64,000 nt of DNA from Nemertoderma westbladi (taxonomy: Eukaryota; Animalia; Xenacoelomorpha), in the NCBI GenBank assembly GCA_032718475.1, contig JAUCBJ010003476.1, forward strand, positions 1 to 64,000, given 5' to 3'. Numbering within the stretch: position 1 is the stretch's first letter; each line of letters opens with the position of its first letter. The notes beneath the pieces were generated by a model. The model was not told where the DNA came from and did no database searches. It saw nothing but the letters and a program-made list of their open reading frames with translations. This document shows, one piece after another, positions 9,571-60,378 of the stretch. The position numbers were made by a program, and so were the translations under genes.

Positions 9571-9602
9571 AAGCCAGCAAGACAGTGGACATCACATTTA
9601 GA

Positions 9603-29716: not shown

Positions 29717-30969
29717 TCAAACTGCAGACAAGAATATATTAGTTTTTATACGGTACTGTTGAGCACAGTGACTTCAGATCATTTGAATATTGACATTTAT
29801 GAGGCCGAAAATAGTGGACATTAAAGGTATCAGGTCGTATTTCCAGGCCTACCTTTTATCTGAGCCGCTAGCGGAATGGTTAGAGCGCCAGATGTAAAGG
29901 CTTTGGCGGAATTAGCTGGTTATTTTCCCCGCAAAGTACTCTGTAGGTGTTTTAACGGACATAAAAAGCCGTTTCCTTACTGTACCGGTGTTTTAGTGGA
30001 CATAAAAAGCCATTTCTTCTGTATGTGTACTTTAGCGGACATAACTAGCGATTTTATGTCGCAATAAGCCAAAATCCTCTTGATACAGTGTAGTTACGAT
30101 GACGACATCTATCAGCTGATATGTACACGTGTATGGTGGCCCATGAGTATCATAACAAAAAAATATATTTATATATTTTTAAATGAAATAAAAAAACGAA
30201 TTTTAAAATGCATATGAAAAAAATTCAAACAAAAAATAAAATGCAATTTAAAATGTATTTTAAAGTCGATTTCAAAACGATTTTTAAAAGGCATTTTAAA
30301 ACGCATTCACAACACGCAGCCCATGAGTATCATAACAGACTGACGTAATGGTAGCTGGCCCAGGAGTATCATATCGAACTGTCAGAGGATAGGCCTAACA
30401 TGCGCATGCGCGCGCATGCGCATACGTCAGGCTACCTAGTTCCCTTGCTGCCAGCTGTAGAGTACCGGTAGTGCACTACTGTTGAACTGCACTAGACAGA
30501 ATCAGAACAGCAGAAGTCAGCTAGTGCAGTAGTGGTATCGGTTCTGCGGTTGTGGCACTTGTGGCAAGGCCCTGCTGCCCTAGGCGTACCGGTACCTGTA
30601 ACTGAATAAGCTCTTTGCTTTGAGTATGCTGAGCGTAGAAAAGCACTATAACTAACTGTATACAGGTATAAGACTATGGCAGTTCGCAGTATGGCTATAT
30701 CTGTATATAAATACAGAAATACCCTATATAGGCTATTATTAGCCTATAGCACTGTAGCAGTATAGGGCTGTAGGGTGACCAGTGACCACTGATAGATTGC
30801 AGGTACCGGTCACCGGTACGTCTGTACGTTGATTGACTTTGTGCCAATGCTGTTATCTGTTCTGCTGTTATTCAGAAACTGCTACCGGTAGTAAACCGCA
30901 TACATTGAAATTTCATTATTATATTTATATTGGACGACATCGATCTGTCGATTGCCTCCCTATACTGCT

Positions 30970-32175
30970 ATGCCACCACGAACAGAATGGAAGGATGACA
31001 AGATTCTTAAAGCGGCTTTGGCTTGGTATGTAAAGAAAAACTACAAAAAAATGGAGATTCTTAACTACATGGAACGCGATTTTGATGAATATGCATGGAG
31101 TTTGGCCACATTAAGTCGCCGCATGAAGCATTTTGAAATTAGGTATATAGATGACTGTGATCCGCAGATCGTTATGGCTGCTATAGTTAGTGAGTTAGAC
31201 GGCCCTTCTCAGAAACTTGGATATAGAGGAATGCATCAAGTTCTCCGTGATAAACATAACTTAAAAGTTCCACGTAGCCTAGTTTCGGACATACTACGAG
31301 ACGTTGATCCAAGAGGTACTGAAGAACGGACACCCAGGTTTAAAGATAAACGTGTGAGAAGTCTATTTGAAAGTGGTGGTTCTTTTCAGACGCTGAGTAT
31401 AGACGGCCACGACAAATTATGTGGATACCAAAACCGTACATTTCCCCTGGGGGTCTTTGTGTTTTTAGATACTTATTCTAGAAAAGTACTTAAAATCAAT
31501 GTTTTATTCTCCAACTCACAGCCTTTAGCTATCGCCTCACTATATTATGATTTACTTACTGAAATAAAGTGTATGCCAGTGTTCATTAGGTGCGATAGAG
31601 GTACCGAGATGGGTAAGCTAGCTACATTGCATTCATACCTTATAGATCAACAAGATATTATGGATGACCCAACAGAAGCTATAATATTTGGGCCTTCCAC
31701 GACCAATAAAATTGAACGATGGTGGAGGGATCTTCACGAACGCATGGAAATGTATTATAAGGATCAACTTACAGATCTGTTAGTTACGAATCAATACGAT
31801 CCACATAACGCAAATGACAGGCTTGTTATGGCCTATGTTTACATACCCATTGTGCAGAAGGATTGCGATATGTTCGTGTCAAACTGGAACTCACATAGAA
31901 TTCGAGCACAGAAGATAGGATTACCAACGGGAATTCCAAATCATATGTTTGATTTTCCCGAAACATACGGTGGCCAGAAATACTCGCTCGATTTTGATTT
32001 ACATGACTTGCAACTGGTTGCAGAGCAACTAGGTATCACTGACTATAGTAAGACCCGTATTATGGACTGTGAGGTTATAAGAAAGTGTACTCAGATATTG
32101 CCAGAACCCGCTAATATTAAGAGTTGTGATGCTAAGGAAGTCTTCATTTATCTTAAAGAAAAAATTAAAGAATAG
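30970..32175 (+). CDS. IS3/integrase-like DDE transposase (intact, ~401 aa)
   Basis: N-terminal HTH-like region (WSLATLSRRMK; LGYRGMHQVLR) and triad SIDGHDKL / IRCDRGTE / NKIERWWRDL, followed by WNSHRIR..GIP. No introns or stops. Confidence 0.92.
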   Translation: MPPRTEWKDDKILKAALAWYVKKNYKKMEILNYMERDFDEYAWSLATLSRRMKHFEIRYIDDCDPQIVMAAIVSELDGPSQKLGYRGMHQVLRDKHNLKVPRSLVSDILRDVDPRGTEERTPRFKDKRVRSLFESGGSFQTLSIDGHDKLCGYQNRTFPLGVFVFLDTYSRKVLKINVLFSNSQPLAIASLYYDLLTEIKCMPVFIRCDRGTEMGKLATLHSYLIDQQDIMDDPTEAIIFGPSTTNKIERWWRDLHERMEMYYKDQLTDLLVTNQYDPHNANDRLVMAYVYIPIVQKDCDMFVSNWNSHRIRAQKIGLPTGIPNHMFDFPETYGGQKYSLDFDLHDLQLVAEQLGITDYSKTRIMDCEVIRKCTQILPEPANIKSCDAKEVFIYLKEKIKE

Positions 32176-32719
32176 TTAAAAGAGAAACATATATATTTAT
32201 TATAATTATAAGGCTATAGAGGGAGGGATGTAACAGATTGGGCATTTATTTTCATTGGCAATCCGGACGGCTAGTACGTAAATTGTATTAACAGTTAACA
32301 CGTTATTTTCAATGATAATCCGGATTGCTGAATACCCTATTGGAATCATGGATTTTCAATGTAATTATTAAATTTCAACTAAACTACTACAACTAACAAC
32401 TAAAAAAGTTAAAACTTAAAGCGAACAATAAAACTAAAAAAACCAACAAAAAAAACAGTAAAACCAAAAATGTATAAGTTTCGCTGTATGGAGTAGAACG
32501 TGGGTTAGTTACCCCGGTATTAATTTCATTGCAATTTAGATAATTTACCAAACCAGATATTAGTATTATTCAATGTTAGTAACCCCAGCCCAAACCCAAA
32601 CTAGCTGCCGGCTAAAATGTATGAAAAACTAAAGAACTTATGCTAAAATAAAAAAGCAAGTTATAGTTATAAGCAAGTTCTATTGCATGAGTCACATGAC
32701 GAATGATATGATAGGCCTA

Positions 32720-34089
32720 CTAAGTGTTTTCATGGAGGTGCATAATTTTGCAATAACGGTTGCATTTATGGGATAGGAGGAAGGTTTCAATACCGATCAC
32801 TGAGCAATTCCCTGCGCAAAAGTATATCTCTTGGTCGTCATATGTTAGTTCTCTACTGGCGATCTCAGGGTCATACAATCGCAGATCTGTGCCCTGAATA
32901 TCTAATAGCATTATCTTCTTCTTCGTATGTATATATGAGTAATGGGCGAGCGCCTGCGCCTTATCATAGTTATCCAGCTCGTAATCGCTGAGGTCTTGGT
33001 CCCTCGTATCTGTTACCGTGCCACAGTTGTTTATGTATTTAATAAATGTGCCAGGTACATGCTCCTCTACTGTAATAAATTCCCTCTCAGATGAATCCAT
33101 CACCCCAAACCAAACCTTATTGTAGACGAAAGTTTCTCCAAAATCTTCGTCGAGATTACTCACACACTTCGAGAATGAATCAGTGTTGTAGAAGCAACGG
33201 TATGCATTTGTACCTGTTTTCGAGTGTGATATTCGACGGTTGTTCCCAGTTCCTCAGTTAACATTGCTTCCACACTGGGTTTGTATTTTTTCACAACAAA
33301 CTTTTCATTGCCATCGCAATTGTAGGCCATGTAGGCAGATCTAAACCCACCCTCCGCAAAAGGTACTTTGGACACCTTGTATCTGCCGGCTTTCTCTATA
33401 TTCCAAGTGGAGTGCTCAATATCAAATTCTTCACGACATATAGTGACAGCAACGTATTTATCATCTACTATAAGTTTACCTGCCTTTATTAAGCATGACA
33501 CTGATACAGATTTTGGATAAATCTTCGGACTCTCAACTGCCCGTGAAGACCACTCCCTAGATAACATATTGGTAGATGAATAAGTAGTACAGCTACCGCC
33601 GTCACTTGGTTCTAAATCCTGCAGTGCGGTACTCACTTTACCACCTGCAGCAGCATCACTACCGGGCGTGGTAGGTTGGCTACTAGTACTAGGTCTACTA
33701 CTACCACCAGTAAACCTGACAAAGTAAATCTTCTTACATCCCAATTGTTCGATGTCAGAGCAGCTTGGGCCCCTCTCACTAGCCAAAACATCACAACTTC
33801 CCTCGGGTTCACCATAGTATGCCTCACAGGCAGTCTTTATGTTAGTGATGCTTAGGTCCTCATAGTCAGCTTGGAAAGGTACAAAGTGGCGAGGCCCAAT
33901 CGGTTCGTATTTAGATAGTCTACCTCCAGAGTGTTCAGATAATTTTTGTACAGTTAGCCATTGCGGGGATTTGAGTCTACCGGTAGCACCAGTACCTTGT
34001 TGCGCTCTCTTCGTGCGTTTCGCTGACAGTCTCGCCTCCAAATCGCCGATGTTTGTTTTTCTTCCTTTCTGTCCCGCAACTCCTGCCAT
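32720..34089 (-). CDS. Alpha-kinase (eEF2K/MHCK/TRPM7 family), intronless, with one frameshift near 33185
   Basis: Motifs PFAEGGFRSAY, FVVKKY, TVEEHVPGTFIKYINNCG, AQALAHYSY, LLDIQG, LYDPEI, AGN and the zinc site HKCNRYC. ORFs 33160-34095 and 32720-33163 join if one base is restored (QMHTVAST.TDSFSKCVSNLDEDFGETF). Confidence 0.9.
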
Positions 34090-37000
34090 ATCCAAGACAT
34101 ACGCATAGGCCTATATACACAGTGGAATACTGAAATATAATAATGTAATACTGAAAAGGAAGTCTACAAATGCGAACTGTACAACTACCGGTACTCTACA
34201 CCTTCAGGTCACAGAAACGAACGAGTCATACTGCCTGACTGCTGTACCGTACCAGTAGTCAAGTTCCAGTACTGTATCACAGTAACAGAAGGCATCGGAT
34301 GTTAGGCCTTGCTGACTTCTGCTGTAGTGCAGTACAACAGTAGTGCACTACCGGTACTCTACAGCTAGCAGCAAGGGAACTAGGTAGCGTATGCGCATGC
34401 TCATGTTAGGCCTATCCTCAGCCAGTTCGATATGATACTCCTGGGCCAGCTACCATTACGTCAGTCTGTTATGATACTCATGGGCTGCGTGTTGTGAATG
34501 CGTTTTAAAATGCCTTTTAAAATTCGTTTTGAAATCGACTTTAAAATCCATTTTAAATTGCATTTTATTTTTTATTTGAATTTTTTTTCATATGCATTTT
34601 AAAATTAGTTTTTTTATTTCATTTAAAAATATATAAATATATTTTTTTGTTATGATACTCATGGGCCACCATACACGTGTAACTTTTCCTTTGTTTCTTT
34701 GTTCGGTCAACCAATCAGAGCGATTCTCATTTTATTTGTACAGAAGCCTCCGGGAAATCGCGCAATGCATTACGGTTTATGTTTACCTTTTTTCCTGATG
34801 CCAGAAGACCGGCTGTGGAATTATTCTGTGTTTCAGGCTTTAGCCAAACATTAGTAGGCTTTGATCATAGAAACGTATAACTGTTATCACAATTCATATC
34901 AACTCAAACCACAAACTGGCATACAGCCCATATCATACCATACATACCTTTCACCGCATTATTTTACTGCTATTTAATGTCGGTTATTAATTGTATCAGT
35001 TTGATGGAATATTGTTATATTTGGATAATATTGATAAATAATCATAAAACCCCAATCTTCTTGATATACTGAAGGTAAGAGACCGGTTACATATAGCAAT
35101 TGCGACTTACATTCTATTGGTTTTGGAGTGAATCTAATGCTATTTCATAGGCACTACATGTGTCCGTTGCTGTTCTCTTTATATGTGACTAAAATCAGTG
35201 AAGGTCGGCAGATCGGTGTGCAGCATTGTGCAGTAGTGTGCATGAGTTTGATAGATAACAAAGCATCTCCTAAAGAATGCGCTTTATACGTGAATCAATA
35301 GCCATCCTGTTGTGCTTAGTGTAAGTCATAACTCTGTTTACATACTTAGAGCGCCACGTCCTAAAGGAACTGTTGATATTTCCCGAAGGTGAATAATATT
35401 GGTCAGAGATTATATATTAGCGATCAATCGAATAATACAGTAGGCCTACATCGCAATAAGGTCAGAGCTTCCGAATCCAGTCTCCTGGGTATATCCAGCG
35501 GGTGAATGGTCGCGCATAGGCTGGCTTCGGCTAATGTAGTGTATCAAATACTTGTCATAGGCTAAAGTCGATTTATAACCTAAAAGACACCTAAATTTGG
35601 CAGGTTAAACTGCTAAAGGTCTAAAAGCGCGAACAATAACAGTTATAGCTTCTTTATTGCACGTAGGCAATAAAGGGCAAAAGTACCGGTCGACCGGTAA
35701 CCAGTAGGCCTGACTACCTAACCACCCGGACCGGTACTTACAGCAGTACAGGTACAGCAGTATTATTCGATTTTGATAATTATATACCGGTAGGTCTTGA
35801 TATTTAATCAGGGACTGCAGCCCTGGTTTTTTATTGGGATTTTACTTATTTCTGTCAGTTTTATTTATTTGTAAGTTGATATTGAGCAGAAGGCGTGTAA
35901 GCCTGCTCAGATTGTACAGATAATTTGTAGGCTAGACTGTTGTCTGACTGTTGTTAAGTCTGAAGAGATTGCAGTGTGTGTAGAGTGTATGTCCGATAAA
36001 GTACTAGTTAGGAAAGTGGGTGGCATCCAGTGCTGTAAGGTAAATCCCCCCGAAAGAATAAGTCGTACTACTCGGTTAGAACGCATACTAACTAACCATT
36101 TCGGAGTCTGCATATACTGTAATTTGTTTAGGCTTGATAGTAGTCTGCCAGCATTTGGTTTGTATTTTGTTTGTGTAGTCTGTAAGGGTAGCGTAATATT
36201 TATTATTCAGAGTTTATGCGATTATTCGCAACATACATACCCCCAAGTTTATTCCTACAGTAATTGTGCTTGTTATACATACCGTTATAGTTAAATTAAC
36301 CCCGGTACTACATCAGGGCTGTTTGGCGTAGGTAAAGACTGGTGATTTTATGCTCTAGTCACTCCGGCAGATACTGTGGTTCTTTTAGCTGTACAAGTAT
36401 TTTTAACTGCTGGTTATTTGTTGTATAAGTACTTGTACCTAATTTAGGGTTTAGTGTACAGTGCTTTCCGAAGGTAATTAGTGTGTAGGCAGTATATTTG
36501 TGTTGTAAAGTGGTTAATAGGCACGTTGGCTCTGGTAGGCCGCGGTAATTAACTTCTAGGTAGGAACTAAGTAGTACTTATAGCGATACGGCTATAAGTC
36601 GTCAGACGGTGGTATTTTTCCTATCTGGACAACGCAGTATATTTACTACTGCTTTGTTATTTTCAAATACTGTAGTATCCTGTCCGTTTGTAATAACCAG
36701 ATATTCTAACCCTTTGTTAGGCTGGTTTGTAGACTTCTTGTAAAATTAACCCTAAAAATTCGTACGTGTAATTTTTGTGTTTATTTAGAGATTGTAATCT
36801 CACCCCGAATTGTACGTAATTTGTAGTATTAAGTAACTTAGGCAAATTAGAATTATTTGTTTTAGTGTCCAACAAGTAGCACTTCACTGAGAGCGTACAG
36901 CTTCTGTGCAGTGACTCCTTCCCAGAAATAATAACATTTATTTCAAACATTGACAAAAACCCATTAAACGGGTATATACATATTATAAATCAACTCAAAC

Positions 37001-37234
37001 CGATTTATAAAATAGTAGGCCTGTCATACAACAATTAGGTCTTAATATCAGTTGGACTACTGATTAAATAACGGTAATAAGGTAAAGTAAAGTAACTTGG
37101 TTCCAAGTAGACTTGGTTTCAAGTAGACTTGGTTCCAGCGGGTGAGTCTCCAGGTTCAAGGAACGGCCCAGTAGAAAGCTCAGCTGGCTGAGCGCTCAAC
37201 CCATGGAGAATCAACAGACGCTACCTTTTCCCAA

Positions 37235-40200
37235 GTGGAAAGTGAAGCGACAGCTGAGAAACCGCATAAGAGGGATGCTATTGACATCTATCTGTCAGAC
37301 TATCAACGATTTCTAGGTGACGAAGAGTTGAGGAGACGGCTGTCTGGACTTCGCCCTAATAGTGAAGGAGCCAAGCTTGTGTTGGACGCAATCGATGCGG
37401 AAATGTTAGCTGCAAACCAAGCTGAATTTGATGAAAGACTCCGCATCGCTAGGGTCCAAGAAGAACAAGTCAAGAAAAAACGTATAGAAGACAGAAAGAC
37501 AGCAGCAGCGGCAATGGCAGAGGCAGAAGCGGAAAGAAAGGCGGCAGAGGCAGAGGCAGAAAGAAAGATAGCAGTGGCAGAAGCAGAACGAAGAGCATCT
37601 GAAGAGACCACCCAACTAGAGTTGGAAAATATTCAAGAGAATCAAGACTGCATAAATAAACAGTTAACAGCTAGTCAAATGCAGATGATGAACAGGAAAT
37701 GATCAAGAAGTGCAGCAGAGTATCGCGTTAGAACGCGATAAATTAGTAAATACCCAAAGAGGTATACCACCAACCCCGGTAACAATGTATCAACCTGTTA
37801 GGTCTGAAGTATTTCATGCGCAAGGTGTGGAGCCTACACGCATCTATACTGCTAGTGAAGTAGAAACTCCTATAGTAAACCCTATTAAGGGTAATTATAA
37901 ACCTGTTGACAATGATATTCCATATAGACCTGATCATAATCCGAGAAATTTATATACCGATAACTCGATATTAAATAACACGATGGCCCAAGAAAGTTTT
38001 ACACGTCAAATGGCTAGAACCGAAGCCCGTCAAGCGGTAAAGGTGGGAGAGATCGTCAAGTTCAATGGAGATGAGATGAAATGGTTATCTTTTAATGAAT
38101 ATTATAAAGATAACATACAGAACTCTGTGCTATCTAATGGAGAGAAACTTAGATTCCTCATCGAGTGCTTGGAAGGATCTCCCAAGTTAATGGCGTTAAA
38201 GTTTATTGGACATCCAGATGGATTAAGACAAGTTTGGGATACACTAAACATCAGGTATGGTAATAGGAATAACATAGCTAGGTATTTGTATGCAAAATTG
38301 GTAGCGCCCCGAAAGTTCATTAGCAGTGGGATTATAGAGTTTTCCGATGAGATTCAGGAGATCTGTAGACAATTAGATTGGCTAGGTAAGTCTCATGAAT
38401 ATCAGAGTTCTATGGTTATTGGAGCCGTGGCCTCTACTTTACCGAAGGGTGGAGTAGGTACACGCTGGGATAAGAAAGTGAAGATATGATGATAAGAAGA
38501 TATGATGGAACAACAACGACGAGACCCTACCGTGGCTGATCTCATGTCATTCTTAGATGGAGAAGTAAAATTACAGCTCCTAAAGCAGTCCAGAGAGAAG
38601 ACACCGGAAAATAAGGTAAGTGAGAAACCAGTTTCTAGGAGAAAGGTAACACCAGTGTGTTATACCGACGACGGCGAAAGCCAGGCTTCTCAAGAAGAGG
38701 ACAGCGGGAAAGACACTGAAAGATCTTATTATGTCAACAAAACGCCTAAAGACGTAAGTAAATTCAAGTCTCGAACCAATGACAGGAGAGAACAGGTAAG
38801 AAAAACTCCTCCTACGTCTCCTAAGAGAATTCATGTAAGAAAGCCCGAAGAAAGAACGAGTGTGCACAACGTTACTCAAAATAAGGTAAGTAACATCAAA
38901 CCGAAATGTGCGCTGTGTGACGGGCCCCACCGTTTGAATGTGTGTGATGAATTCCTAAAGAAATCGTTAAAGGATAGACGGGAAGTCATGTGGGATAAGC
39001 GGTTGTGTTTATAATTGCCTCAGACAAGGACACCAACGGCGAACCTGTTACTCCGACGCAAGGTGTGCGAAGTGCGGCGCAAAACATCATATCTTGTTGC
39101 ACACTGAATTCGAACGAAACAGCTCGAGTCAGGTAAGTGAGTCCGAACTACATGTCCAATTCAGTGATGTGAACGACACTGACCAAAGTTCTGAGATGGA
39201 AGGATTCTATACGGACGAATTCTCCGACGAAAACGAATCCTGTTACCAGATAAATACCGCAGTGTATCGAGCACTTATGTATGAAAAGGATACCGACAGT
39301 GAGCTCCCCCTAACTACTTCTGACCGACAACCATCTTGGAAAGCACCAACTTCCAATGTAGGAATCCGAGAATTTACCGTAGTGCAGTTGAGGGTCCACG
39401 GACCTGAAAGGAGTTATATAGTGAACGCCCTCCTTGACTCCGGTAGCACAGGAACATTCATCGACAAAGAACTAGCCGAAGACATCTTTGCTGGACAACC
39501 CAAGTTCCGAACAAGTTAAACATGTCAGGAATTATGCAGGTTTGGAAATCTACAGTAATAGCAGATTATTATGTAGGTGCGTTGTCCAACCCCCAGGATG
39601 AACTAGGAGAACACAGTATAAGGTCAGTAAAAATGGTGGCGATAAAGAACTTCGCTACCAGCCAAGTAGAACCTTATAACTGGGATGAGGACGATTTCAC
39701 CCAGCAGCTTAAAATACCTAGATTCAACACAGACTACCCTGGAGTGCAAATACTCATCGGCCAAAATGCGCATGAGGCGCTTGAGACATTGGAGAAACGG
39801 CCTGCTCAACCGCAACCACTACAAACCTATGCGGGAAGAACTAGAGTAGGTTGGTACTTTACTGGCCCTTCCCGTAGAACTCTCATGGAAAGGTTAAAAA
39901 GAACGGGTATACCAGGTAAGTGAATGGGAAGCGGAGAGCAGTGAGGTAGATGACCCAACTGAGGGAACACCATACTCCTCAGATAATGACGATATCCACC
40001 AACTCTTCGACGAGGAAAATACCATCGACCTCCTTACAGAAAACGAAACTTGGCAAAACCAAGTGAACCTATGTCAACTCATTCATCCATCAGGACAAGT
40101 CGACTATAACGACGAACTGAATGACGTGATAGATCGCTACAACGCGAGGACTCGGGATGAACACGCCGTACGATTCTTTACTCAAGAGGCTGTAGAGCCC

Positions 40201-43200
40201 AATTCCTACGATAAGGCCCTATCGGTAGAAGAAGAAAGAGCCAAGCAGATCCAGGAGACAACTATACGTTTTCTTAAAGATCAAGGTAGATATGAAATCG
40301 GTCTACCATTCCGAAAGCGAGAACCAAAATTCATAAACAACCGACCCTTGGCGGAGAAAAGAATTGCGCAACTACATCGACGCCTTACGGCAAATGCTTC
40401 AGCTAAAGAAATGTACCAGACTCAGTTGAAGAAATTTATTAACAAGGGATATGCGGAGCGAGTACCGGAAGAAACACCCATAACTGAGAGAATGTACTAT
40501 CTAACACATCATTACATTCCCAAACCCGGTAAACCCAATGAAGTTCGGGTAGTATTTGATGGCTCCGCCCTCTACATGGGCCAATCCCTTAATTCCGAGT
40601 TGTTAACAGGACCCAACTTACTCCAATCCTTGTTGGGAATACTCCTAAGATTATGACAATATTCAATCGCTTTCGCCTCCGATATAGAAGGCATGTTCTT
40701 ACAAGTCAAGGCGCTGGATAGGGATCGAGATAGCCTACGATTTCTGTGGTGGCCGGAAGGAGACCTCAACCAGAAACCGGTGGACTATTGGATGACCATC
40801 CAGGCTTTTGGGATCATCTCAAGCCCTTCAAACGCCTGCTCAGTGGTGCGCACCACTGCTGATGACAACCGGGGGGACGCCTTCTCTAAAGAGGTGATCA
40901 ACAACATCAAACGGGATATATACATGGACGACAATTTAAAGTCCCTTCCATCGGTGGAAGAAGCCATTGATGTCGCCATAGGAACTGTAGAGTGCTTAAA
41001 AAGAGGTGGATTTCGATTAACTAAATTCACCAGCAACTCCCGTGAGTTTCTGGAATCGATTCCGGTAGAAGATCGAGGAGTGAAAGATCTAGACCTAATC
41101 AAAGACGATCTTCCAGAGAAACCAAAACACTTGGTTTGAAATGGGACACAGAGAGAGATATCCTGTTTTTCCAGCTCAAACAGCGAGATAATCCAGTTCG
41201 GACTAAACGGATTTGTTTAAGTATCCTGAGCACTTATTTCGATCCATTGGGATTTATTAGCCCAGTTATATTGATTGCTCGGAGTTTAGTACAACAAATG
41301 TGGCTTGAAAACCACTCATGGGACGATCCACTTAAGGGAGAACTATTAAAGAAGTGGATGAAATGGGAAGATTCTCTACCAACCATCGAGAACTTTATAA
41401 TTTCCCGTTCATATTTTGGTCATGTTCTCCCTACGTATTCCTATCAACTCCATGTGTTTGGAGACGCCAGCGATATGGGAATAGGTATAGTAGCCTACCT
41501 GAGAGTGGAAACTCCGGATGGAATCAAAGTCGCCTTGGTTACCTCTAAGGCATTGATAAACAACAAGTTGAAAGTTCCTCGAGCGGAGTTAAAAGCGGCT
41601 CTATACGCTACAGCCATCGGCCGGAATGTAACAGAACAGATCGAATATCCACTGGAGAAAACTGTCTATTGGACCGATGCTTTACTCGTGTTGGAGTATA
41701 TAACCAATGAAGTCTGTCAGTTCAACGTCTTCGTTACCAACAGAGTAGCCATTATACTTAGTCGCACGAAGATGGATCAATGGAGACATTGCCCCGGAAC
41801 GATTAATCCAGCAGACATCGCCTCCAGGGGAGCAACTCCACAAGAACTGATAGATACTCCAGACTGGTTAGGTGGACCCGACTTCCTAAGCAAAGAAGAG
41901 GATGAATGGCCTCCTCATCTTACTACGGCGGAGATTAGACAGGCCAAGGGAGCGGAGAAAGTCAAACCTAAAACTCGGGCGAGTAAATCGAAGTTATTTA
42001 AACCCGTGGTAGATCTGTCTGTACTACACGCTTCCGGAGACGACGCTTTGGATCCGAAACCCACAGCCACAAATAAGTCTGTTGTGGAAATCAGAGAGAA
42101 GGATTGGAAATCTGGAATACCAGACGTCTCGCAAGGACTCTCACCTCTCCTGCAGAGAGCGATATATCACTACAGTTCCTGGAATCGGTTCTGTAAGGCC
42201 GTTACATATTTAAAGCGATGTTTTCATCATCACTACTCCAGAACGAAGACCAATAGTGATACCGCTCCACTGACATCTGTGCAGGTCCATGTTGTTAAAG
42301 ATCTTCCCAAATATAAGATATCCGACAGGTTTCTGAAGGAGAAGATCAGTTACCAGGAGCATGAAGAAACCAATAAGCAGATGCTGAGACTCCTGCAATT
42401 CTATGAGGATTCCGATAAGTATTTCCTGTTGTTGAGAAATCCACAGATGCACTTAAGGGATCGTTTCTCTAGCACAATGATAGATGGGTTGATACGTGTT
42501 GGAGGAAGATTAACTAATGCTCCATTATCCTTTGACACTAAGTTTCCCATACTCATTAGAAATCTTGAAATACAAATCAAGATGATTGTAGATGTTCACA
42601 GCAAACTTTATCATGCTGGTAGAGAACGAGTTCTTAGCGAAATTCGAACTCGCTATTATTTTTATAAACCCCGTAGAGCTCTGAACCAAGTTCTTAGGAA
42701 CTGCATACCCTGTAGGAAAGCATTCAGTAGGCCTTTAACACAGCGAGAGGCAGAATTACCTAGGGAACGAGTAAGCTTCTATGAACCACCCTTTACTAAT
42801 ACCGGTGTAGATTTATTTGGCCCTATTGAAGTATATCGTGCTAGGACTATAGTCAAGAGATGGTGTGTCATCTTTGTTTGTATGACTTGTAGAGCTATCC
42901 ATCTCGATATGGTGAACGATTTATCTACCAACAGCTTCCTATTGAGCTTACGACGACAGATCGCTCGCTTTGGAACTAGTAACACGATGAGATCTGATAA
43001 GGGAACGAACTTCATTGGTGCCAACAATGAAATCAAAGCTTACGTCAAAGATTGGAACCAAAGACAGGTGGATGATCAGCTAAGGGTAACAGCGTCTAGC
43101 TGGACCTTCAACGCCGCCGACGCCCCTTGGTGGGGAGGAAGTTGGGAGAGATTAATCAGGAGCGTGAAGACCGCATTTCACTTTATAGTGCCGTGCCGTG

Positions 43201-43808
43201 CGTATCTCACCGACGAACTTTTGCGGACGTTAATGGAGGAAATCGCCGCCTATCTCAACGAGAGACCGCTTATGCCAGTCTCATCGAGTCCCGATTCCCT
43301 GGAAGCGCTAACACCCGCGCACTTCCTACTGAAGAAACCTGTAGCCATGCTCCCACGATCGGAAATCACAGACGGAGACGAATACTGCCGGCAAACTTGG
43401 CAACTTATGCAGTTGTTATCCCGTCGTTTCGCTGACCATTTCGAAAAACATTATCTGCCCACGCTACAACTTCGAACTAAGTGGTTTGCGCAGCAAGAAA
43501 ACGTCAGCGCCGGAGACATGGTCCTTATTGTGGATTCAGATCTTCCACGTAAGCGGTGGCAGACAGGTCTTATCATCGAGACTCACATCTCGGATGATGG
43601 TTTGGTGCGATCGGTAGAACTCGTCGTCATGCGACGTAACTTTAAGAAACCGGGAATTGTCTTCGAGACACAGCAGCTCAATCGCCCAGTTGGTCGTTTA
43701 TGTTTACTGGAAAGAGACAGAGAACTCTCCGGAAACTATGGAAGGCAAGATACTCTTCCCACGACCACCTCCCTAATCCAACAAACATCTAGGGACTCCC
43801 CAACGTAA
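37235..43808 (+). pseudogene. BEL/Pao gag-pol polyprotein, disrupted by several frameshifts and stops
   Basis: Coiled-coil N-terminus; gag core (KFNGDEMKWLSF, EKLRFLIECLEG); three Cys/His knuckles (CALCDGPH..C, CYNC..GH..C across a frameshift, CAKCGAKHHILLH); protease LLDSGS; RT (VRVVFDGS, YMDD); RNase H (FGDAS); integrase (H..H..CIPC, GVDLFGP, SDKGTNF, WERLIRSVK). Confidence 0.95.
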
Positions 43809-45444
43809 CAGCGTCTGGAGTGGGTGTGTGACTATATTATTTTATATTTACTTTTATTATTTTATATTTATGTATGTATTATTATGTAATTTTATTATAA
43901 TCGTTTTCTTTAATTTTATTTAGTAGAAGGTTATTTTAGCGATTATTTAGTAGATTAGTGCCATATATATTCGCGTTTATTATTTAATTACTTATATATT
44001 ATATATTTAGTGCGACGGCGAGATATAATTCTTTTTCTCTTTCCTTACTGTCCGTATTATATTATAAATACGTGACTACAGTAAGATGAAATATCCGTAC
44101 TTATTAAAGTACAATAAAGCTCCTACTATATTCAAGTATTATTGGTAAGTAGAGTATTAGGAATGCAAAATTCAGATCCTCGTGTCTCGGCTAAACCAAG
44201 CTCTGGGTAGACCTTGGAAACGACTTGCCTCTTCTCACTGACATTGCTTCTTGCGATATTGCTCTCATACCGTATATTAAATAATACATATAGTAGCGTG
44301 ATGTCCCTTTAACAGTAGCGTAAAACGCAAATAAATCTGTTAAACCCTTTGACCATCTCTAATTCTAGTCGATTAAGATATCGCAGCACCCACCGATATA
44401 CTTGAAAGACAAAATTCTAGAATCAGTGGTTAACGTCCCCAGACAAGTTCTGGAATAAACTGGTGCCCATCCTAAATATTAACTATTAATATTTATAAAA
44501 TCTGTCAAATTTTAGATCCTTTAAAATTCTAGTCTATTAAGATATCGTAGCACTTACCGATATTCTTAAAAAGACCAATTTCCTAGAATCAAGGATCCCA
44601 GTCCCCAGACATGTTCTGGAATAAAATTGTGTCTATTTAATATTAAATAATAAAATTTACGGGAATAAATTTAAATTCATCTTTTAATGAATTTGATAAA
44701 TTGTCATTTTTATACAATTTATAACATTCCCAAAATTCCATAAATTATTAGATCATGGGAGCGGAGATTCACCCTATTAAGTGTATTAGTGTGCGAGAAT
44801 CTCCAATATATAGTCAATAGCCGATAAAATTCATAAAATCATGTATAAAGGGGATATTGACAATTAAAGAATTACTATTAAATAGCATCCCAGATCTGTA
44901 TGCATGGGAATTACCCTAATTCTACCGCTAGCTTTCCATAATGTCACCATAGCAACAACCACACTAGAATTAGAAGTGAGTTAAAAGAACAATAGAAAGC
45001 TTGCCCCATTGAATAGCATAGGGAATAAATAGCACACTGCTAGTATCCAAGGATACATAATAATAACGTGGCATTCTGGAAGGCACTGACTAACGGACAA
45101 ATGGCCCGAATGTGTACAATTTGTGACAGTTGTGTGGAATTTGTGCGTTTATAGGTGAATGTTACTACTAAAGTGTGTTTACAGTAGCGAGTCGCAATTG
45201 TGAAAGTAGCCCTAACTCTGCCGTAAGAACCTGAAGTAAATCTAAGCCTTTGGGACGGACAGTGGAGTGACTTGTGCCGGTTATCGTTGTCGTTGTGTAG
45301 CTACTACGTTGGCGAAAAACACAGCGATGACGGTACATCGGCGCTGAGGATCTTGCACTGTCCGGGGGCAGAGAGGGGTAGGCAGCGACGCCCGCTAGCC
45401 TAAATATAAACTCATTATAATATTGATAAACTCATATAGCAGAT

Positions 45445-45843
45445 ATGACTGAGTTGATAGAAGATGATCTTGGTATCAGGGAGCGATATACTCTACCTTT
45501 ACAAGCGTTTGTTGATAGCTTGATACGCGGCGACGCTGGTCCAACTACTACGGAGGACGATGGTCGTTATATCGAAACGCCAATGTCCCAGGAGCAACTT
45601 ACGCGTGAATTGGACTATAGAAAATTCACCGCTCGCTATACATATCGTAATGGTACGTATATGGACTTCTTAACTACTGGCCATCCTATCGATTTACACG
45701 ATACGGACGATGTAGACACCGAAAGGAAAATGGTTTTATTTAAATATCATACCCAGCGGAGTCGGAACGATAAACCGAGAATAGAACACGAGAATTCTAT
45801 TCGAAACCGACTCGGGGGATGGAATGTGGAAGAAGGCTTGTAA
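45445..45843 (+). CDS. Unknown 132-aa ORF in the 3' region of the BEL/Pao element
   Basis: ATG-started ORF with protein-like acidic composition, preceded by TATAAA at ~45405. No recognisable domain. Confidence 0.4.
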   Translation: MTELIEDDLGIRERYTLPLQAFVDSLIRGDAGPTTTEDDGRYIETPMSQEQLTRELDYRKFTARYTYRNGTYMDFLTTGHPIDLHDTDDVDTERKMVLFKYHTQRSRNDKPRIEHENSIRNRLGGWNVEEGL

Positions 45844-46632
45844 AGACAAGTAGAGGAGAACCACTAGAGAAAAGACATACGTTAATGTCCAGGGTCCATA
45901 ATGTGAATAATTTTCCCCGGGGCACGGGTGCTCGCGGGCGGTCTCCTTCGGGAGGCTGTAATTTTCTCTTATTTCATCGTCTTCCTGTAATTATTGTGAT
46001 CAGTGTCACAATTAAAGAGCAAGAATGAATGGTGACATAACGGAAAACAAGTCCATCGTGGTATCTTACAGATACTACCATATATCCTTCCTCCTCCTTA
46101 CTACCATTATCCCTCTATACATCGCTATTGAAGATACAACATACTTCGTCCCTCCTTCTCTTCCCAACGCGCTCGGAGCTTTGGGAGACGATCGACCAAT
46201 CCTAGTGGTATCGTGGTATGGATCGTACCACCTACTACTAAACCTCCCCATCCCTTACTATTGATCTGGATGCTTATATTGGTGTCCGCACCTCCTGTCC
46301 ATGTCTCATTCTGTTGATATTTATAATGTCAACTTCCACCCTCTCGTTGTTGATTAGAAAATCAACCACCAATGATTTCCTTAAGTCCAGAACCGTGATA
46401 CAAGGACTGAAAGGACACACGGATAGTTTGTGAACAACTGGTACCATTATGTGTCATAAATCTGGTTGTTCACCTCCCTTAATAATTGGGGATAAATTCA
46501 TTTGGAGATAGTCATCGAATGATACAATCCTCCTACTGAGATCGTATTTCTGAATATTTCAGAATGCGACATAAGTTTTCCTCTGCTCTCTACCATCAAT
46601 TGTGGAAAACATATTAGGCATACAACAGGAAC

Positions 46633-47754
46633 ATGGAGAACATTCCATATCCTTTCGTCGATACTCAGCTGATTGCTCCCTCGGCAGAAGGCCGAGGTTT
46701 CTTCCACACTATGTATGCAAATACACCCAGCGGCATTACTAAAGTACATCGGACCTCCATCGGACATCTTGCCTTTCAAGAATACGGATGGAATTTCAAG
46801 GTTGGAAATCCTATCAACTACCAACAAGTATATGGAGATCATTATTCTCGATTATACTTTGACGGACCATTGACCGCACCTGGCGCTGTGTATAGCTTTA
46901 TGAGCGTTCCACTTCGTCCCTCCTTAGCTATATACACGATCTTTGAAAACGCCGCACTTGCCGGTTGGCTAGCCGATGTGTGCAGTCGTACCATACACGC
47001 CCATCCCTTAATACTTGGAACCAAACTCGCCAAGCTAGATGAACACAATAAATTCATCCGCTTCGAATGTTTCAGGCGCTTTCTGACTCCGTTCCGTAAC
47101 GTCGATAGTCAGTTCAAGGACTGCGCTCTGACCAAGCTCAGCCTAAGAGACTCAGCTGCTGAGAAGCTAGACAGCGCGGGATTCGCCATTTTCAAGGACG
47201 TTTGTATACAGAACTTACATTCATCTGTTATACAAAGACCTCGAATACCCACGGGTTATTCTGTCGTGGAAGTTCAGACAGTGGGTTCGCTTGCGGAGAC
47301 AGCCGCACATATCTCAGCTATGCAATTGGAGGACGAACCAATATGCTTAGAATCTGAGGAGATTCAGCCTACTCAGGAGGTTCATAGACGACCCTATGAA
47401 TATAGAGCCCGAGAACGCGAGTTAGAAAGAACCATCAAACCGATGAAATTTCTCACTACTCACGGTCTACCTACCGCTCTCGTGCAGACGACTCGTCAGG
47501 GACCAGTAAGAGCTGCTGTCTTGAAACGCGCTCTGAAGGTTGTTCGAGCTTGCTCCACTGAGGTTGATGTCGATCAACCGGGTACCTCGACCGGCGGATA
47601 CACTGACCGTAATCCTAAACCTTCTGATGCAATTGTATTGCACCCTTCACCTAGGAGTTATAGCCCTCCTAGTAAAGTGGCTCGCCCCAAAGAGAAAAGG
47701 ACTCTTGCTAGCCTCAAAAAACTGCGTAAACGCCATCCACGCAAGAAAGACTAA
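46633..47754 (+). CDS. Unknown 373-aa accessory protein of the BEL/Pao element
   Basis: Uninterrupted ATG ORF ending ~70 bp before the PPT. Globular-looking N-terminal half and a basic C-terminus (KKLRKRHPRKKD). No obvious signal peptide or transmembrane helix. Confidence 0.7.
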   Translation: MENIPYPFVDTQLIAPSAEGRGFFHTMYANTPSGITKVHRTSIGHLAFQEYGWNFKVGNPINYQQVYGDHYSRLYFDGPLTAPGAVYSFMSVPLRPSLAIYTIFENAALAGWLADVCSRTIHAHPLILGTKLAKLDEHNKFIRFECFRRFLTPFRNVDSQFKDCALTKLSLRDSAAEKLDSAGFAIFKDVCIQNLHSSVIQRPRIPTGYSVVEVQTVGSLAETAAHISAMQLEDEPICLESEEIQPTQEVHRRPYEYRARERELERTIKPMKFLTTHGLPTALVQTTRQGPVRAAVLKRALKVVRACSTEVDVDQPGTSTGGYTDRNPKPSDAIVLHPSPRSYSPPSKVARPKEKRTLASLKKLRKRHPRKKD

Positions 47755-47831
47755 CTGTTTAGAGTATTTTATATTTTAGAAACTGTGATTTTTTATATTT
47801 TATAGAATTAAATCCCATTTTCTGGGAGCGG

Positions 47832-49026
47832 TGTAAAGGCTTTTGCGGAATTAGCTGGTTATTTTCCCCGCAAAGTACTCTGTAGGTGTTTTAACGGACA
47901 TAAAAAGCCGTTTCCTTACTGTACCGGTGTTTTAGTGGACATAAAAAGCCATTTCTTCTGTATGTGTACTTTAGCGGACATAACTAGCGATTTTATGTCG
48001 CAATAAGCCAAAATCCTCTTGATACAGTGTAGTTACGATGACGACATCTATCAGCTGATATGTACACGTGTAACTTTTCCTTTGTTTCTTTGTTCGGTCA
48101 ACCAATCAGAGCGATTCTCATTTTATTTGTACAGAAGCCTCCGGGAAATCGCGCAATGCATTACGGTTTATGTTTACCTTTTTTCCTGATGCCAGAAGAC
48201 CGTCTGTGGAATTATTCTGTGTTTCAGGCTTTAGCCAAACATTAGTAGGCTTTGATCATAGAAACGTATAACTGTTATCACAATTCATATCAACTCAAAC
48301 CACAAACTGGCATACAGCCCATATCATACCATACATACCTTTCACCGCATTATTTTACTGCTATTTACTGTCGGTTATTAATTGTATAAGTTTGATGGAA
48401 TATTGTTATATTTGGATAATATCGATAAATAATCATAAAACCCCAATCTTCTTGATATACTGAAGGTAAGAGACCGGTTACATATAGCAATTGCGACTTA
48501 CATTCTATTGGTTTTGGAGTGAATCTAATGCTATTTCATAGGCACTACATGTGTCCGTTGCTGTTCTCTTTATATGTGACTAAAATCAGTGAAGGTCGGC
48601 AGATCGGTGTGCAGCATTGTGCAGTAGTGTGCATGAGTTTGATAGATAACAAAGCATCTCCTAAAGAATGCGCTTTATACGTGAATCAATAGCCATCCTG
48701 TTGTGCTTAGTGTAAGTCATAACTCTGTTTACATACTTAGAGCGCCACGTCCTAAAGGAACTGTTGATATTTCCCGAAGGTGAATAATATTGGTCAGAGA
48801 TTATATACTAGCGATCAATCGAATAATACAGTAGGCCTACATCGCAATAAGGTCAGAGCTTCCGAATCCAGTCTCCCGGGTATATCCAGCGGGTGAATGG
48901 TCGCGCATAGGCTGGCTTCGGCTAATGTAGTGTATCAAATACTTGTCATAGGCTAAAGTCGATTTATAACCTAAAAGACACCTAAATTTGGCAGGTTAAA
49001 CTGCTAAAGGTCTAAAAGCGCGAACA
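47832..49026 (+). repeat. 3' LTR (1195 bp, uninterrupted)
   Basis: TGTAAAGG...GCGCGAACA. Carries a single CACGTG at the site that is duplicated in the 5' LTR. Confidence 0.96.
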
Positions 49027-50846
49027 CCAGACTTCCGAGCTGGTGGAGGTCACCAGTTCGATCCAGTTTTTTTTTTATTAATATACGAAACCTCTGGAAT
49101 ATCATTCTCCCAAAATACAAATAATATAATTCTAACAGTTCCGTATAGCACTACATTTTTATAACATAAATCATTGTTACCATGGCAATATTGTAGAGTT
49201 CTAGAACAAAATATAAATAATATACTGCGAGTTATTGCATAAAATGGATATGAATTGCTCAATATTCCTAATTACAATAATAGTGAAGGTAAAGCTAATA
49301 GTTAATCATTCAGATCGCCGAAAGTTGACATAATAATATAACAAAAATTATACGTTCAGCCATTGTGTGAAAAAGACACCCTATTGAACGTTGGAGACCG
49401 TTGTATATTTATGTAAACCTCCCTCGCGCATACACCCCGGTCAAAACGTTGAAAAGTGCTACTTGTCATACAATATGTAAATAGTTAATAGTAAATCATG
49501 TAAAAAAATGATTTATTATTTATCTGATGTTACAAAAGGCGTCGGAATGGTTAGTTGCCAAGCTGCCATCACCAAACGTCGAGTCCTGGTGCCGGTCTCT
49601 GAATAATCCCGCCAATGTTTGGCCTGTGGCGTAACGTTTGGTTTGTCACACCCGGTAACGTTCTCTCTCAGCACATGCAGGCGTCATACCCCTTTTTTGC
49701 TTTATTATTGTAATCAGCCTTCCCAGCCACAAAAATCGATGACAAAAAGAAAAAAAAGAAATTTATATTTTGAAAAAAAAAGGAAGAAAAGGATAGGATG
49801 CAGTTCAAAAAACGGACTAAAAGTATAGGATAAGTTAAAAACAAAAGGAAAACTCAATTGTATTATCTTTAAAAAAAGGATAGCGCTGTTCATTCTTGAT
49901 TTAATTTCATTAACCTTATTTGAAGAATCCCATAAGAAACGTTACTGCTTTAAAAGACAGGAAGAGATCAAAGTAAGTTACAAATACAGTAGAAACACAG
50001 AAAGAGAACAACGCCAATAGCAATATAAGTATTATAAATCAACCAATCAATAAAATAAGAACAATTTAAAAAAACAATTACGAAATTTTCACCTTTTTTG
50101 CCTAGTTATCATAGATGGTTGAGCTCGGCCGATTGATGGTCATTGATAGAGGTTTATCAAATGCTTGTAAATAGAACTCTAGTTTGAAAGTGATATAAAA
50201 ACTTTGGAAAGGATTTCCGATCGTGGCTACATTTATATAAATAACAAAAATACATTTAGACGCAATCAAAATTCAACCATCTCCAGGGGAAAACGGATGC
50301 ATTTAACAGCTGGTTACGAGCAATCGAGCAAAAATGAAACTGTAACCGTATTATATGCTTTCTTTTATTGTTTTGGTTAGAATAGATGCCACTGTAACCT
50401 GTTCCTATCACTAAATTGAAAATCAACAATGTTAATGCACCAAGGCGGGTTTTGTGCCAATTATAATAATATCCCCCCTCAGAAAATAAATATATTAAAG
50501 CTCACAAAAAAAGGAAGTAGATGAAATAAAAATAAAAATGAAAACAAAATCAAACGGATATAATTAGTTAATTAATTAGTTATAATTTACCCGCCCGGTT
50601 TACATTTCTATCTGTATTGATGTTACATAGTACGTAATTGTTATGTTGGGTATGATATATTGGTAACGGTAAATTTTGTTGTTGACTATTTTGTTTGTTT
50701 GACTTATGGAAATTATACGTTGCTTCAGGCGTATCTAACTATAACTATTTCTGAAATATTTTATACAAATATTGTATCTATAGCTGTACTTTGGTGTAAA
50801 GATAATATTCTTAGTCAGACGAGTCTAGAAGAATTATAAGAATAAT

Positions 50847-53800
50847 TCTTCGAGTTAGCTCACTCCTCCAGCTCACTCTTCGAGCCAGCTCACTCCTCAA
50901 GCTCACTCTTCGAGCCAGCTCACTCCTCAAGCTCACTCTTCGAGCCAACTCACTCCTCAAGATCACTCTTCGAGCCAGCTCACTCCTCAAGCTCACTCTT
51001 CGAGCCAGCGCACTCCTCAAGCTCACTCCCCAAGCACACTCTTCGAACCAGCTCACTCCTCACGCTCACTCTTCGAGCCAGCTCACTCCCCAAGCTCACT
51101 CTTCGAGCCAGCACAATCCTCTCGCTCACTCTTCGAACAAACTCACTCATCAAGCTCACTCGTCGAGCAAGCTCACTCCTAAAGCTCACTCTTTGAGCCA
51201 GCTCACTCCTCAAGCTCACTTTTCGAGCCAGCTCACTCCTCACGCTCACTCTTCGAGCCAGCTCACTCATCAAGCTCACTCTTCGAGTCAGCTCACTCCT
51301 CAAGCTCGCTCTTTGAGCCAACTCACTCCTCACGCTCACTCTTCGTGCCAGCTCACTCCTCAAGCTCAATCGTCGAGTCAGTTCACTCCTCAAGCTCACT
51401 CTTCGAGCCAGCTCACTCACCAAGCTCACTCTTCGAGCCAACTCACTCCTCAAGGTCACTCGTCGAGCCAGCTCACTCCTCACGCTTATTCTTCGAGCCA
51501 GCTCCCTCCCCAAGCTCACTCTTCGAGTCAGCTCACTCCTCAAGCTCACTCTTCTAGCCAGCTCACTCCTCACGCTCACTCTTCGAGCCAGCTCACTCGT
51601 CGAGCCAGATCACTCATCAAGCTTGCTCTTCGAGTCAGCTCGCTCCTCAAGCTCACTCTTCGAGCCAGCTCACTCCTCAAGCTCACTCTTCGAGCCAGCT
51701 CACTCCCCAAGCTAACACTTCGAGCCAGCTCAATCCTCAAGCTCACTCTTCGAGCCAGCTCACTCCTCAAGCTCACTCTTCGAGCCAGCTCACTCCTCAC
51801 GCTCACTCTTCGAGCCAGCTCACTCCTCACGCTCACTCTTCGAGCCAGCACAATCCTCTCGCTCACTCTTCGAGCCAACTCACTCCTCAAGCTCACTCGT
51901 CGAGCCAGCTCACTCCTAAAGCTCACTCTTTGAGCCAGCTCAATCCTCAAGCTCACTCTTCGAGCCAGTTCACTCCTCAATCTCACTCTTCGAGCCAGAT
52001 CACTCGTCGAGCCAGCTCACTCCTCACGCTCAATCTTCGAGCCAGCTCACTCTTCGAGTCAGCTCACTCCTCAAGCTCGCTCTTTGAGCCAACTCACTCC
52101 TCACGCTCACTCTTCGTGCCAGCTCACTCCTCAAGCTCAATCGTCGAGTCAGTTCACTCCTCAAGCTCACTCTTCGAGCCAGCTCACTCACCAAGCTCAC
52201 TCTTCGAGCCAACTCACTCCTCAAGGTCACTCGTCGAGCCAGCTCACTCCTCACGCTTATTCTTCGAGCCAGCTCCCTCCCCAAGCTCACTCTTCGAGTC
52301 AGCTCACTCCTCAAGCTCACTCTTCTAGCCAGCTCACTCCTCACGCTCACTCTTCGAGCCAGCTCACTCGTCGAGCCAGCTCACTCATCAAGCTTACTCT
52401 TCGAGTCAGCTCGCTTCTCAAGCTCACTCTTCGAGCCAGCTCACTCCTCAAGCTCACTCTTCGAGCCAGCTCACTCCCCAAGCTAACACTTCGAGCCAGC
52501 TCAATCCTCAAGCTCACTCTTCGAGCTAGCTCACTCTTCAAGCTCACTCTTCGAGCCAGCTCACTCCTCACGCTCACTCTTCGAACCAGCTCACTCCTCA
52601 CGCTCACTCTTCGAGCCAGCACAATCATCTCGCTCACTCTTCGAGCCAACTCACTCCTCAAGCTCACTCGTAGAGCCAGCTCACTCCTAAAGCTCACTCT
52701 TTGAGCCAGCTCACTCCTCAAGCTCACTCTTCGAGCCAGTTCACTCCTCAATCTCACTCTTCGAGCCAGCTCACTCCTCACGCTCACTCTTCGAGCCGGC
52801 TCTCTCCTCACGCTCACTCTTCGAGCCAACTCACTCCTCACGCTCACTCTTCGTGCCAGCTCACTCCTCAAGCTCAATCGTCGAGTCAGTTCACTCCTCA
52901 AGCTCACTCTTCGAGCCAGCTCACTCACCAAGCTCACTCTTCGAGCCAACTCACTCCTCAAGGTCACTCGTCGAGCCAGCTCACTCCTCACGCTTATTCT
53001 TCGAGCCAGCTCCCTCCCCAAGCTCACTCTTCGAGTCAGCTCACTCCTCAAGCTCACTCTTCTAGCCAGCTCACTCCTCACGCTCACTCTTCGAGCCAGC
53101 TCACTCGTCGAGCCAGATCACTCATCAAGCTTGCTCTTCGAGTCAGCTCGCTCCTCAAGCTCACTCTTCGAGCCAGCTCACTCCTCAAGCTCACTCTTCG
53201 AGCCAGCTCACTCCCCAAGCTAACACTTCGAGCCAGCTCAATCCTCAAGCTCACTCTTCGAGCCAGCTCACTCCTCAAGCTCACTCTTCGAGCCAGCTCA
53301 CTCCTCACGCTCACTCTTCGAGCCAGCTCACTCCTCACGCTCACTCTTCGAGCCAGCACAATCCTCTCGCTCACTCTTCGAGCCAACTCACTCCTCAAGC
53401 TCACTCGTCGAGCCAGCTCACTCCTAAAGCTCACTCTTTGAGCCAGCTCAATCCTCAAGCTCACTCTTCGAGCCAGTTCACTCCTCAATCTCACTCTTCG
53501 AGCCAGATCACTCGTCGAGCCAGCTCACTCCTCACGCTCAATCTTCGAGCCAGCTCACTCTTCGAGTCAGCTCACTCCTCAAGCTCGCTCTTTGAGCCAA
53601 CTCACTCCTCACGCTCACTCTTCGTGCCAGCTCACTCCTCAAGCTCAATCGTCGAGTCAGTTCACTCCTCAAGCTCACTCTTCGAGCCAGCTCACTCACC
53701 AAGCTCACTCTTCGAGCCAACTCACTCCTCAAGGTCACTCGTCGAGCCAGCTCACTCCTCACGCTTATTCTTCGAGCCAGCTCCCTCCCCAAGCTCACTC

Positions 53801-55360: not shown

Positions 55361-56009
55361 GGTTAGATAAAAAATTAACAAACAAAAAAAAAATTAGTAA
55401 AACCGAAAATGCATTTAGTTGAATTTATTGTCCAAGTTGCTAATTTAAGATAACTTCCGCACTTTATAAGTGTAACACAACATAGAATATATTTTGGATA
55501 CGACAACAGAACATTGACAATGGTGTACCAAATACATAGTTGGTATATATATGACTATTATAGTCCTGAACAAAAAGTAAAATGCAGTTGAACAAGCAAA
55601 ATACATGAACCAAATGAGAGGAAAAATATAAGAAATATCATAACCCTGCAAAAAGGAATATATCCTGAATTTAAACATTTCAAAAATAACATCCAATATC
55701 GTTATTCGGTTGAGAATTATTGTTTACAGCCAATAGAAATAATTTAGGAAATAAAAACTTAGGTTTTAATACAATTAGCGAGGTTTAGAGTTCCTGAAGA
55801 ATCATATTGAGAAACAAACTTATGGAGAGGATCAATGAGAAATGTTTCTCATGAAAAGTTAAAGCAAATTCTAAGGGATACCGGCTGCAACGTTATAGAA
55901 GTAAAAATAAAAGTCCCTCCTGAATGTCATACAATAGTTATACAATGACTGTCACAATACTGCCGCCACATAGAACAGTAAAAACAAAAATAGCCTAACT
56001 GCAATGAGA

Positions 56010-56131: not shown

Positions 56132-56193
56132 TTCCAATATTATGAGTATCTAACATCGGTTATTTAACTGCCTTCAATATGATTCCATTCCTT

Positions 56194-57021: not shown

Positions 57022-57042
57022 TTGGGGAAGCCAATTGTGGAT

Positions 57043-60378
<3,336 letters not shown>

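Follow-up and report, generated by a model that had tools for sequence, protein, structure and literature searches.

We analysed a stretch of 64,000 nucleotides from Nemertoderma westbladi (Xenacoelomorpha; GenBank assembly GCA_032718475.1, contig JAUCBJ010003476.1, positions 1 to 64,000 of the forward strand), which is referred to in its full length as the window. It harbors a DNA transposon of the IS3EU type, in which a DDE transposase gene and an alpha-kinase gene face each other, and which is located within one long terminal repeat (LTR) of a BEL/Pao retrotransposon. The features of this locus, including the terminal inverted repeats (TIRs) of the element, are as follows.

29893..49026, plus strand: host BEL/Pao LTR retrotransposon (PF05380, PF18701, PF03564)
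29893-35635, plus strand: 5' LTR of the BEL/Pao retrotransposon, split by the element (LTR pair comparison)
30126..30131: left target-site duplication CACGTG, present as a single copy in the sister LTR
30132-34673: IS3EU-type element, about 4.5 kb, with TATGG..CCATA ends
30132..30505, plus strand: left TIR, first letters TATGGTGGCC, AT-rich, with the terminal motif repeated inside
30970..32175, plus strand: DDE transposase, 401 amino acids (aa), intact and intronless (PF24764; D145, D209, E249)
32176..32719: spacer between the convergent genes, AATAAA on both strands
34089 to 32720, minus strand: alpha-kinase gene (PF02816), frameshift near 33185
33694..33993, minus strand: N-terminal domain of the kinase, predicted beta-grasp (ubiquitin-like) fold (predicted local distance difference test, pLDDT, of the model: 88)
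34312..34673, minus strand: right TIR, last letters GGCCACCATA
34674..34679: right target-site duplication CACGTG, the letters flanking the element
47832-49026, plus strand: 3' LTR of the BEL/Pao retrotransposon, the sister LTR (LTR pair comparison)

The original prediction, which was made from the sequence alone, described an element bounded by TIRs and a 6-bp target-site duplication, with an empty site preserved in the sister LTR. Indeed, CACGTG is found twice at the borders of the element and once at the empty site (match from 48057), and the two TIRs of about 370 bp share 93% identity (blastn). In related loci, the terminal motif of the left TIR recurs at 16 left ends and 8 right ends. The two LTRs of the retrotransposon are 1195 bp long each, with CCAGA on both flanks. 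Since the sister LTR keeps the empty site and the LTRs differ at only 7 positions, we conclude that the insertion into the BEL/Pao LTR is young. The insertion context TA-CACGTG-TA of the window copy also fits a 10-bp duplication with TGG..CCA ends; however, this option is disfavoured against a 6-bp duplication, because, of 23 ends in related loci, just one has the outer TA. At these 23 ends, which comprise 21 distinct hexamers, the adjoining hexamer matched SWNNWS in 16 cases (expected: 5.6%), and the duplication in the window agrees with this palindromic pattern. We scored the element against the published definitions of IS3EU/GingerRoot with regard to ends, duplication, TIRs and transposase, and found TAYGG..CCRTA ends, a 6-bp duplication, TIRs longer than 30 bp and an integrase-like DDE transposase with its first Asp 100-300 residues from the N-terminus. 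The IS3EU type proposed originally is borne out by these ends and this duplication, and, judged from its sequence traits, the element is a recently inserted cut-and-paste transposon of the IS3EU/GingerRoot type. The LTR flanks of the element (29893-30131 and 34674-35000) showed a summed depth hundreds-fold above that of the element in three public runs, which indicates a very abundant repeat in Nemertoderma westbladi.

The transposase gene is intact, as predicted, and matches PF24764 with 65.9 bits (cut-off 26); its D/D/E residues are conserved in 47, 47 and 46 of 47 aligned relatives. The convergent, intronless alpha-kinase gene matches PF02816 with 86 bits (cut-off 21.3) and contains the motifs VVKKY, LLDIQG and LYDPEI as well as the H/H/C/C zinc site that had been named beforehand. 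The AATAAA motifs in the spacer between the genes may serve as polyadenylation signals. The statement that the element contains only two genes stands insofar as no third gene frame was found in it: two other open reading frames of at least 80 aa are antisense to the kinase, and a further one of 83 aa is located in the left end, which is non-coding. However, a single base is missing near 33185, which breaks the kinase into two frames, and the window copy is unable to make a whole kinase as written. The missing base is present in contigs of all four public runs (three studies, same organism), which implies that the break is particular to this copy or to this assembly. The contigs of the public runs span the kinase gene in long pieces, and one run shows a different 1-base loss at 33286. 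The contigs of run X4 cover 30511-34245, i.e. the element interior without the TIRs, and one loose end of these contigs resembles a template-switch adapter; since the label of the run as DNA is a guess and contigs cannot show RNA ends, this is a mere hint and does not amount to evidence of expression.

Relatives of the element were obtained by scanning metagenome contigs with a transposase alignment, which led to 146 confirmed loci, the best 80 of which were analysed and grouped into 36 families at 85% amino-acid identity. Among these best 80 loci, 34 extend for 1500 bp or more past the 3' end of the transposase, and 33 of them carry a convergent kinase gene; with a limit of 1000 bp it is present in 34 of 37, and none of the 80 carries a kinase on the transposase strand. 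The lone miss, L070, has a truncated transposase, and other members of its family do have the kinase. All 16 testable families carry the kinase in a fixed position and orientation, and the 8 right ends that could be recognised are all located beyond the kinase start. From this we conclude, as had been proposed, that the alpha-kinase is a dedicated, regular gene of this element group and not a chance capture or one-off retrocopy. Named database matches were obtained from Paramuricea, Stylophora, Exaiptasia, Actinostola, Clytia (transposase only), Ciona and Phallusia, and six pairs of transposase and kinase matches, one of them named Ciona intestinalis, agree exactly in the length of their longest contig, which hints at linkage in assembled genomes. 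Viral contigs, searched with the transposase alone and with the kinase alignment, contained no relatives, nor did prokaryotic genome contigs searched with the kinase alignment. The further proposal that the element spreads alpha-kinases through invertebrate genomes finds partial support in a large family (365 clusters at 50% identity, E ≤ 1e-30) with named members among corals, anemones and tunicates, the co-occurrence having been counted in the direction from transposase to kinase.

With respect to gene structure, one transposase clade (L022, L031, L038, L052, L064 and others) holds up to three introns at shared positions (about 249, 285 and 341 of the profile), and the kinases of that clade are intronless. 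Loci L003, L004 and L009, which belong to one family, are represented by circularly permuted contigs with the kinase start located tens of bases from the transposase start. The joint differs between L004 and L009, and these contigs are either assembly or amplification artefacts or excised circles.

A comparison of the kinase and transposase trees had been suggested as a check. Across 19 family representatives, 7 of 16 splits are common to both trees (2000 shuffles: mean 0.40, maximum 4) and the distances of the two genes are correlated (Mantel rho 0.69, p 0.0001); in a set of 14 well-covered rows, with five dropped, 7 of 11 splits are common. However, the two topologies are not identical, and the data argue that the two genes were for the most part inherited together, with some swapping or error affecting the deep branches, that of the window element included. 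For the ratio of replacement to silent substitution rates (dN/dS), only close pairs were used, because dS between families is saturated. Five of the 14 kinase pairs examined gave dN/dS values of 0.18-0.46 at p < 0.05, and one further significant pair differs by 3 silent and 0 replacement changes. In four of these pairs, the transposase shows values of 0.21-0.25. In the selection test asked for by the original prediction, the kinase is therefore under purifying selection according to these ratios.

The protein predicted from the window kinase consists of a basic N-terminus, the predicted ubiquitin-like domain, a linker of low confidence and the kinase domain; according to the alignment, the protein ends about 10 residues past the zinc cysteines. 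Correspondingly, the predicted structure of the intact homologue P0109 begins with a basic helix at the N-terminus, followed by a compact domain, a linker modelled with low confidence and a kinase domain. The matches of the kinase domain were ranked TRPM7 (E 9e-25), MHCK A (1.5e-21), eEF2K (1e-15) and ALPK1, and the P0109 model matched the TRPM7 kinase with an E of 1e-17. The 84 kinase homologues share a single architecture, with lengths of 393-471 aa and no Pfam domain other than PF02816, i.e. the melastatin and channel domains that precede the kinase in TRPM6/7 are missing. The calmodulin-binding region and the C-terminal eEF2-binding domain of eEF2 kinase are missing from the window protein, the N-terminal part of which is predicted to be ubiquitin-like. 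The two catalytic Asp, the Gln and three of the four zinc ligands are kept in 19 of 19 family representatives, the ATP-site Lys and the first zinc His in 18 of 19, and across the 84 homologues there is little or no variation at the catalytic and zinc-binding positions. A motif resembling a nuclear localization signal is located within the first 45 aa of 71 of the 84 homologues, compared to 0 and 12 of 84 for two control stretches. The nearest Atlas clusters are cnidarian 'TRPM6-like' proteins (0.98) and basidiomycete alpha-kinases (0.97); in an Atlas search with the N-terminal domain alone, all scores were below 0.8. Close kinase matches are labelled 'TRPM6-like', and some labels read 'eukaryotic elongation factor 2 kinase'.

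The pairing of transposase and alpha-kinase itself is already known in passing. In TET+ IS3EU families of rust fungi, the two genes are oppositely oriented (Kojima 2025, PMC12730594), and that paper devotes two sentences to the kinase without assigning it a function. The novelty claimed originally for the pairing is therefore lost, which comes near to the finding of existing IS3EU entries with an alpha-kinase that the original prediction had itself named as its refutation. Compared by description, the rust elements have the same TAYGG..CCRTA ends, 6-bp duplication and opposed transposase and alpha-kinase genes; they differ by a TET/JBP gene between the two and a length of about 9-12 kb (three supplement rows), whereas the window element is a compact two-gene animal form of 4.5 kb. 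Among the papers that we consulted, this one alone links the kinase to IS3EU, and our literature searches, with Repbase and Dfam entries outside their coverage, yielded no paper that counts the pairing in animals or studies the kinase; Repbase or Dfam might state the animal pairing. IS3EU and GingerRoot elements, as described in PMC10045372 and PMC6839031, share the TA..TA termini, the 6-bp duplication and the integrase-like DDE transposase, and are present in corals, anemones and other aquatic animals; no kinase is mentioned in the main text of either paper. Plant GingerRoot elements, as described there, differ by TIRs of 100-150 bp, compared to about 370 bp in the window element, and by GC-rich targets without base preference, compared to SWNNWS in its relatives. 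The structure and function of IS3EU elements have been called largely unexplored (PMC11934779).

With the known alpha-kinases TRPM6/7, MHCK A, eEF2K and ALPK1, the window kinase shares the fold, the catalytic Lys/Asp/Asp and the C-terminal zinc site, compared with their description in PMC2827801. In contrast to these proteins, it is without channel, WD40, calmodulin-binding and eEF2-binding parts, carries a predicted ubiquitin-like domain next to a basic helix instead, and is encoded by a transposon. Cnidarian kinase-only 'TRPM6-like' entries have been called misannotated (PMC13143021), and the same label is found among the close matches of the window kinase, a likeness based on labels. PMC13143021 does not contain the string 'transpos', whereas the family sits inside IS3EU-type elements here. 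Our analysis adds the count in animals, the predicted ubiquitin-like domain and the basic N-terminus, the SWNNWS preference, and the placement of this family of 'TRPM6-like' proteins, which consist of a kinase only, in a transposon context.

Regarding its role, we consider it fairly likely that the kinase is a nuclear helper, which would phosphorylate the transposition complex or nearby chromatin to the gain of the element. In such a scheme, the transposase would bind the TIRs, excise the element and integrate it at SWNNWS-like sites, with cuts staggered by 6 bp. The basic N-terminus may carry the kinase into the nucleus, where the predicted ubiquitin-like domain would dock it on its substrate, and the resulting phosphorylation of the complex or of nearby chromatin would raise the chance of the element to be copied. 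A precedent, though no more than that, is the cleaved TRPM6/7 kinase, which is reported to phosphorylate histones in the nucleus (PMC13143021). As the kinase of the window is broken, this copy would depend on intact copies elsewhere.

Several points weigh against the reading of the kinase as a nuclear helper. As stated above, the relatives are the best 80 of 146 loci, and 20 of the 36 families contain too little DNA for a kinase check. In the approximately unbiased (AU) test with 19 rows, each topology was rejected on the data of the other gene (p 9e-6 and 2e-4), and with the 14 well-covered rows the values were 0.085 and 0.019; from these rejections, the modules have probably been exchanged on occasion, also in the lineage of the window element. 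In total length, the kinase tree exceeds the transposase tree by a factor of 1.8. Of the kinase dN/dS pairs, 8 of 14 are non-significant, the pairs are non-independent, with several from one family group, and a dense-mismatch filter lowers the ratios (unfiltered: 0.28-0.69); among near-identical copies dN/dS is about 1 for the kinase, as it is for the transposase. The ubiquitin-like match is weak: Foldseek with the N-terminal domain gave a best E of 3.5e-3 (above 0.001), with nearly all rows among those listed being ubiquitin, SUMO, UBL and PB1, and VIA gave a best Z of 6.6 (below 8; root-mean-square deviation 2.8, 73 residues aligned). Finally, the main text of the plant GingerRoot paper does not mention a kinase, so that the kinase may be dispensable in some lineages.

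The main rival is an anti-defence gene, which would lift repression by acting on silencing or immune proteins in the cytoplasm rather than at the transposition complex, with the small-RNA pathway or innate signalling as proposed targets. This is possible, but clearly the less likely option. A conflict gene would suit the faster change of the kinase compared to the transposase and the occasional module swaps, and in the fungal IS3EU elements the TET/JBP genes are read as anti-silencing tools (PMC12730594). However, the conserved basic N-terminus suggests the nucleus, no pair shows a dN/dS clearly above 1, and the architecture is uniform across the 84 homologues. It is quite unlikely that the kinase is kept for a benefit of the host, in which case the transposon would be the carrier of a mobile gene for signalling or immunity; the large conserved family with intact catalytic residues would agree with it, but the kinase tracks the transposase tree across many coexisting families, and the frequent decay of copies by stops and frameshifts at several loci suits selection at the level of the element.

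The original prediction had also considered altered translation, i.e. phosphorylation of eEF2 as by eEF2K. The common kinase fold and some of the database labels speak for such a role, which we nevertheless regard as very improbable, because the calmodulin-binding part and the C-terminal eEF2-binding domain, both of which eEF2K requires (PMC2827801), are missing from the window kinase; in addition, eEF2K ranks below TRPM7 and MHCK A by E value. A passively captured host retrocopy in neutral decay, to which the intronless and frameshifted window kinase, the second 1-base loss in one public run and the dN/dS near 1 among near-identical copies would conform, is hardly credible, since the kinase occurs at a fixed place and orientation in 16 of 16 testable families with 30-60% identity and kept catalytic residues, while the window transposase is likewise intronless and equally neutral among near-identical copies. 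Neutral capture was rejected on the basis of co-occurrence, co-descent and conserved residues, and the argument from the missing introns fails, as the kinase is in one piece in many relatives whose transposases hold up to three introns.

A far-reaching extension, which we regard as rather unlikely when its three parts are taken jointly, would be that the kinase is an ancient, near-obligate IS3EU partner in animals and fungi which phosphorylates chromatin to keep the element active, that the kinase-only 'TRPM6-like' genes in corals, anemones and tunicates belong for the most part to transposons, and that the ALPK2/3-TRPM6/7 kinase lineage of vertebrates was domesticated from such an element. 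The TRPM6/7 kinase has been derived from an ALPK2/3 ancestor (PMC13143021, which does not mention transposons).

Upstream of the transposase, up to 450 bp from its start, a further feature is located, which has no bearing on the kinase question.

30503..30952: 11 motifs of the form X5-(CAG or CTG)-X5 (0.035 expected from shuffles)

One more such motif is found at 34230, and within positions 1-50000 of the window there are only 4 others. Three of the motifs and one variant appear as clean 8-base gaps in all four public runs, from which it follows that the motifs were added stepwise, and one further motif is missing from one public run. The cluster likely consists of stacked footprints left by the excision of another DNA transposon, one with CAG..CTG ends and a 5-bp duplication, which may have been inserted and excised repeatedly near the transposase promoter. 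Sleeping Beauty footprints likewise consist of a duplication around CAG or CTG (bioRxiv 10.1101/659086), with the difference that the duplicated motifs are 5 bp long in the window instead of TA. In positions 1-50700 of the window, we found no complete element that combines CAG..CTG ends with a 5-bp duplication, and a literature search on footprint terms gave no match. If this interpretation holds, the cluster is a record of repeated visits of a second transposon to the promoter region of the element.

Elsewhere in the window, there are the first coding exon of a Zic zinc-finger gene (9552-10634, plus strand), which is indicative of an animal host, a 378-codon open frame between the BEL/Pao pol and the 3' LTR (46618-47754, plus strand; no Pfam match), long minisatellite arrays with a 30-bp period and related ones within 50700-60200, and a 308-codon open frame at 60640-61566 (no Pfam match).

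It is unusual for a cut-and-paste transposon to have a protein kinase as its regular second gene, and none of the papers that we found studies what this kinase does. The compact two-gene element, the transposase of which is intact and the kinase frame of which is open in other copies, offers a simple test system. Moreover, many gene calls of marine invertebrates labelled 'TRPM6-like', 'MHCK-like' or 'eEF2K-like' are likely to be transposon genes, which would inflate the kinome counts of these animals.

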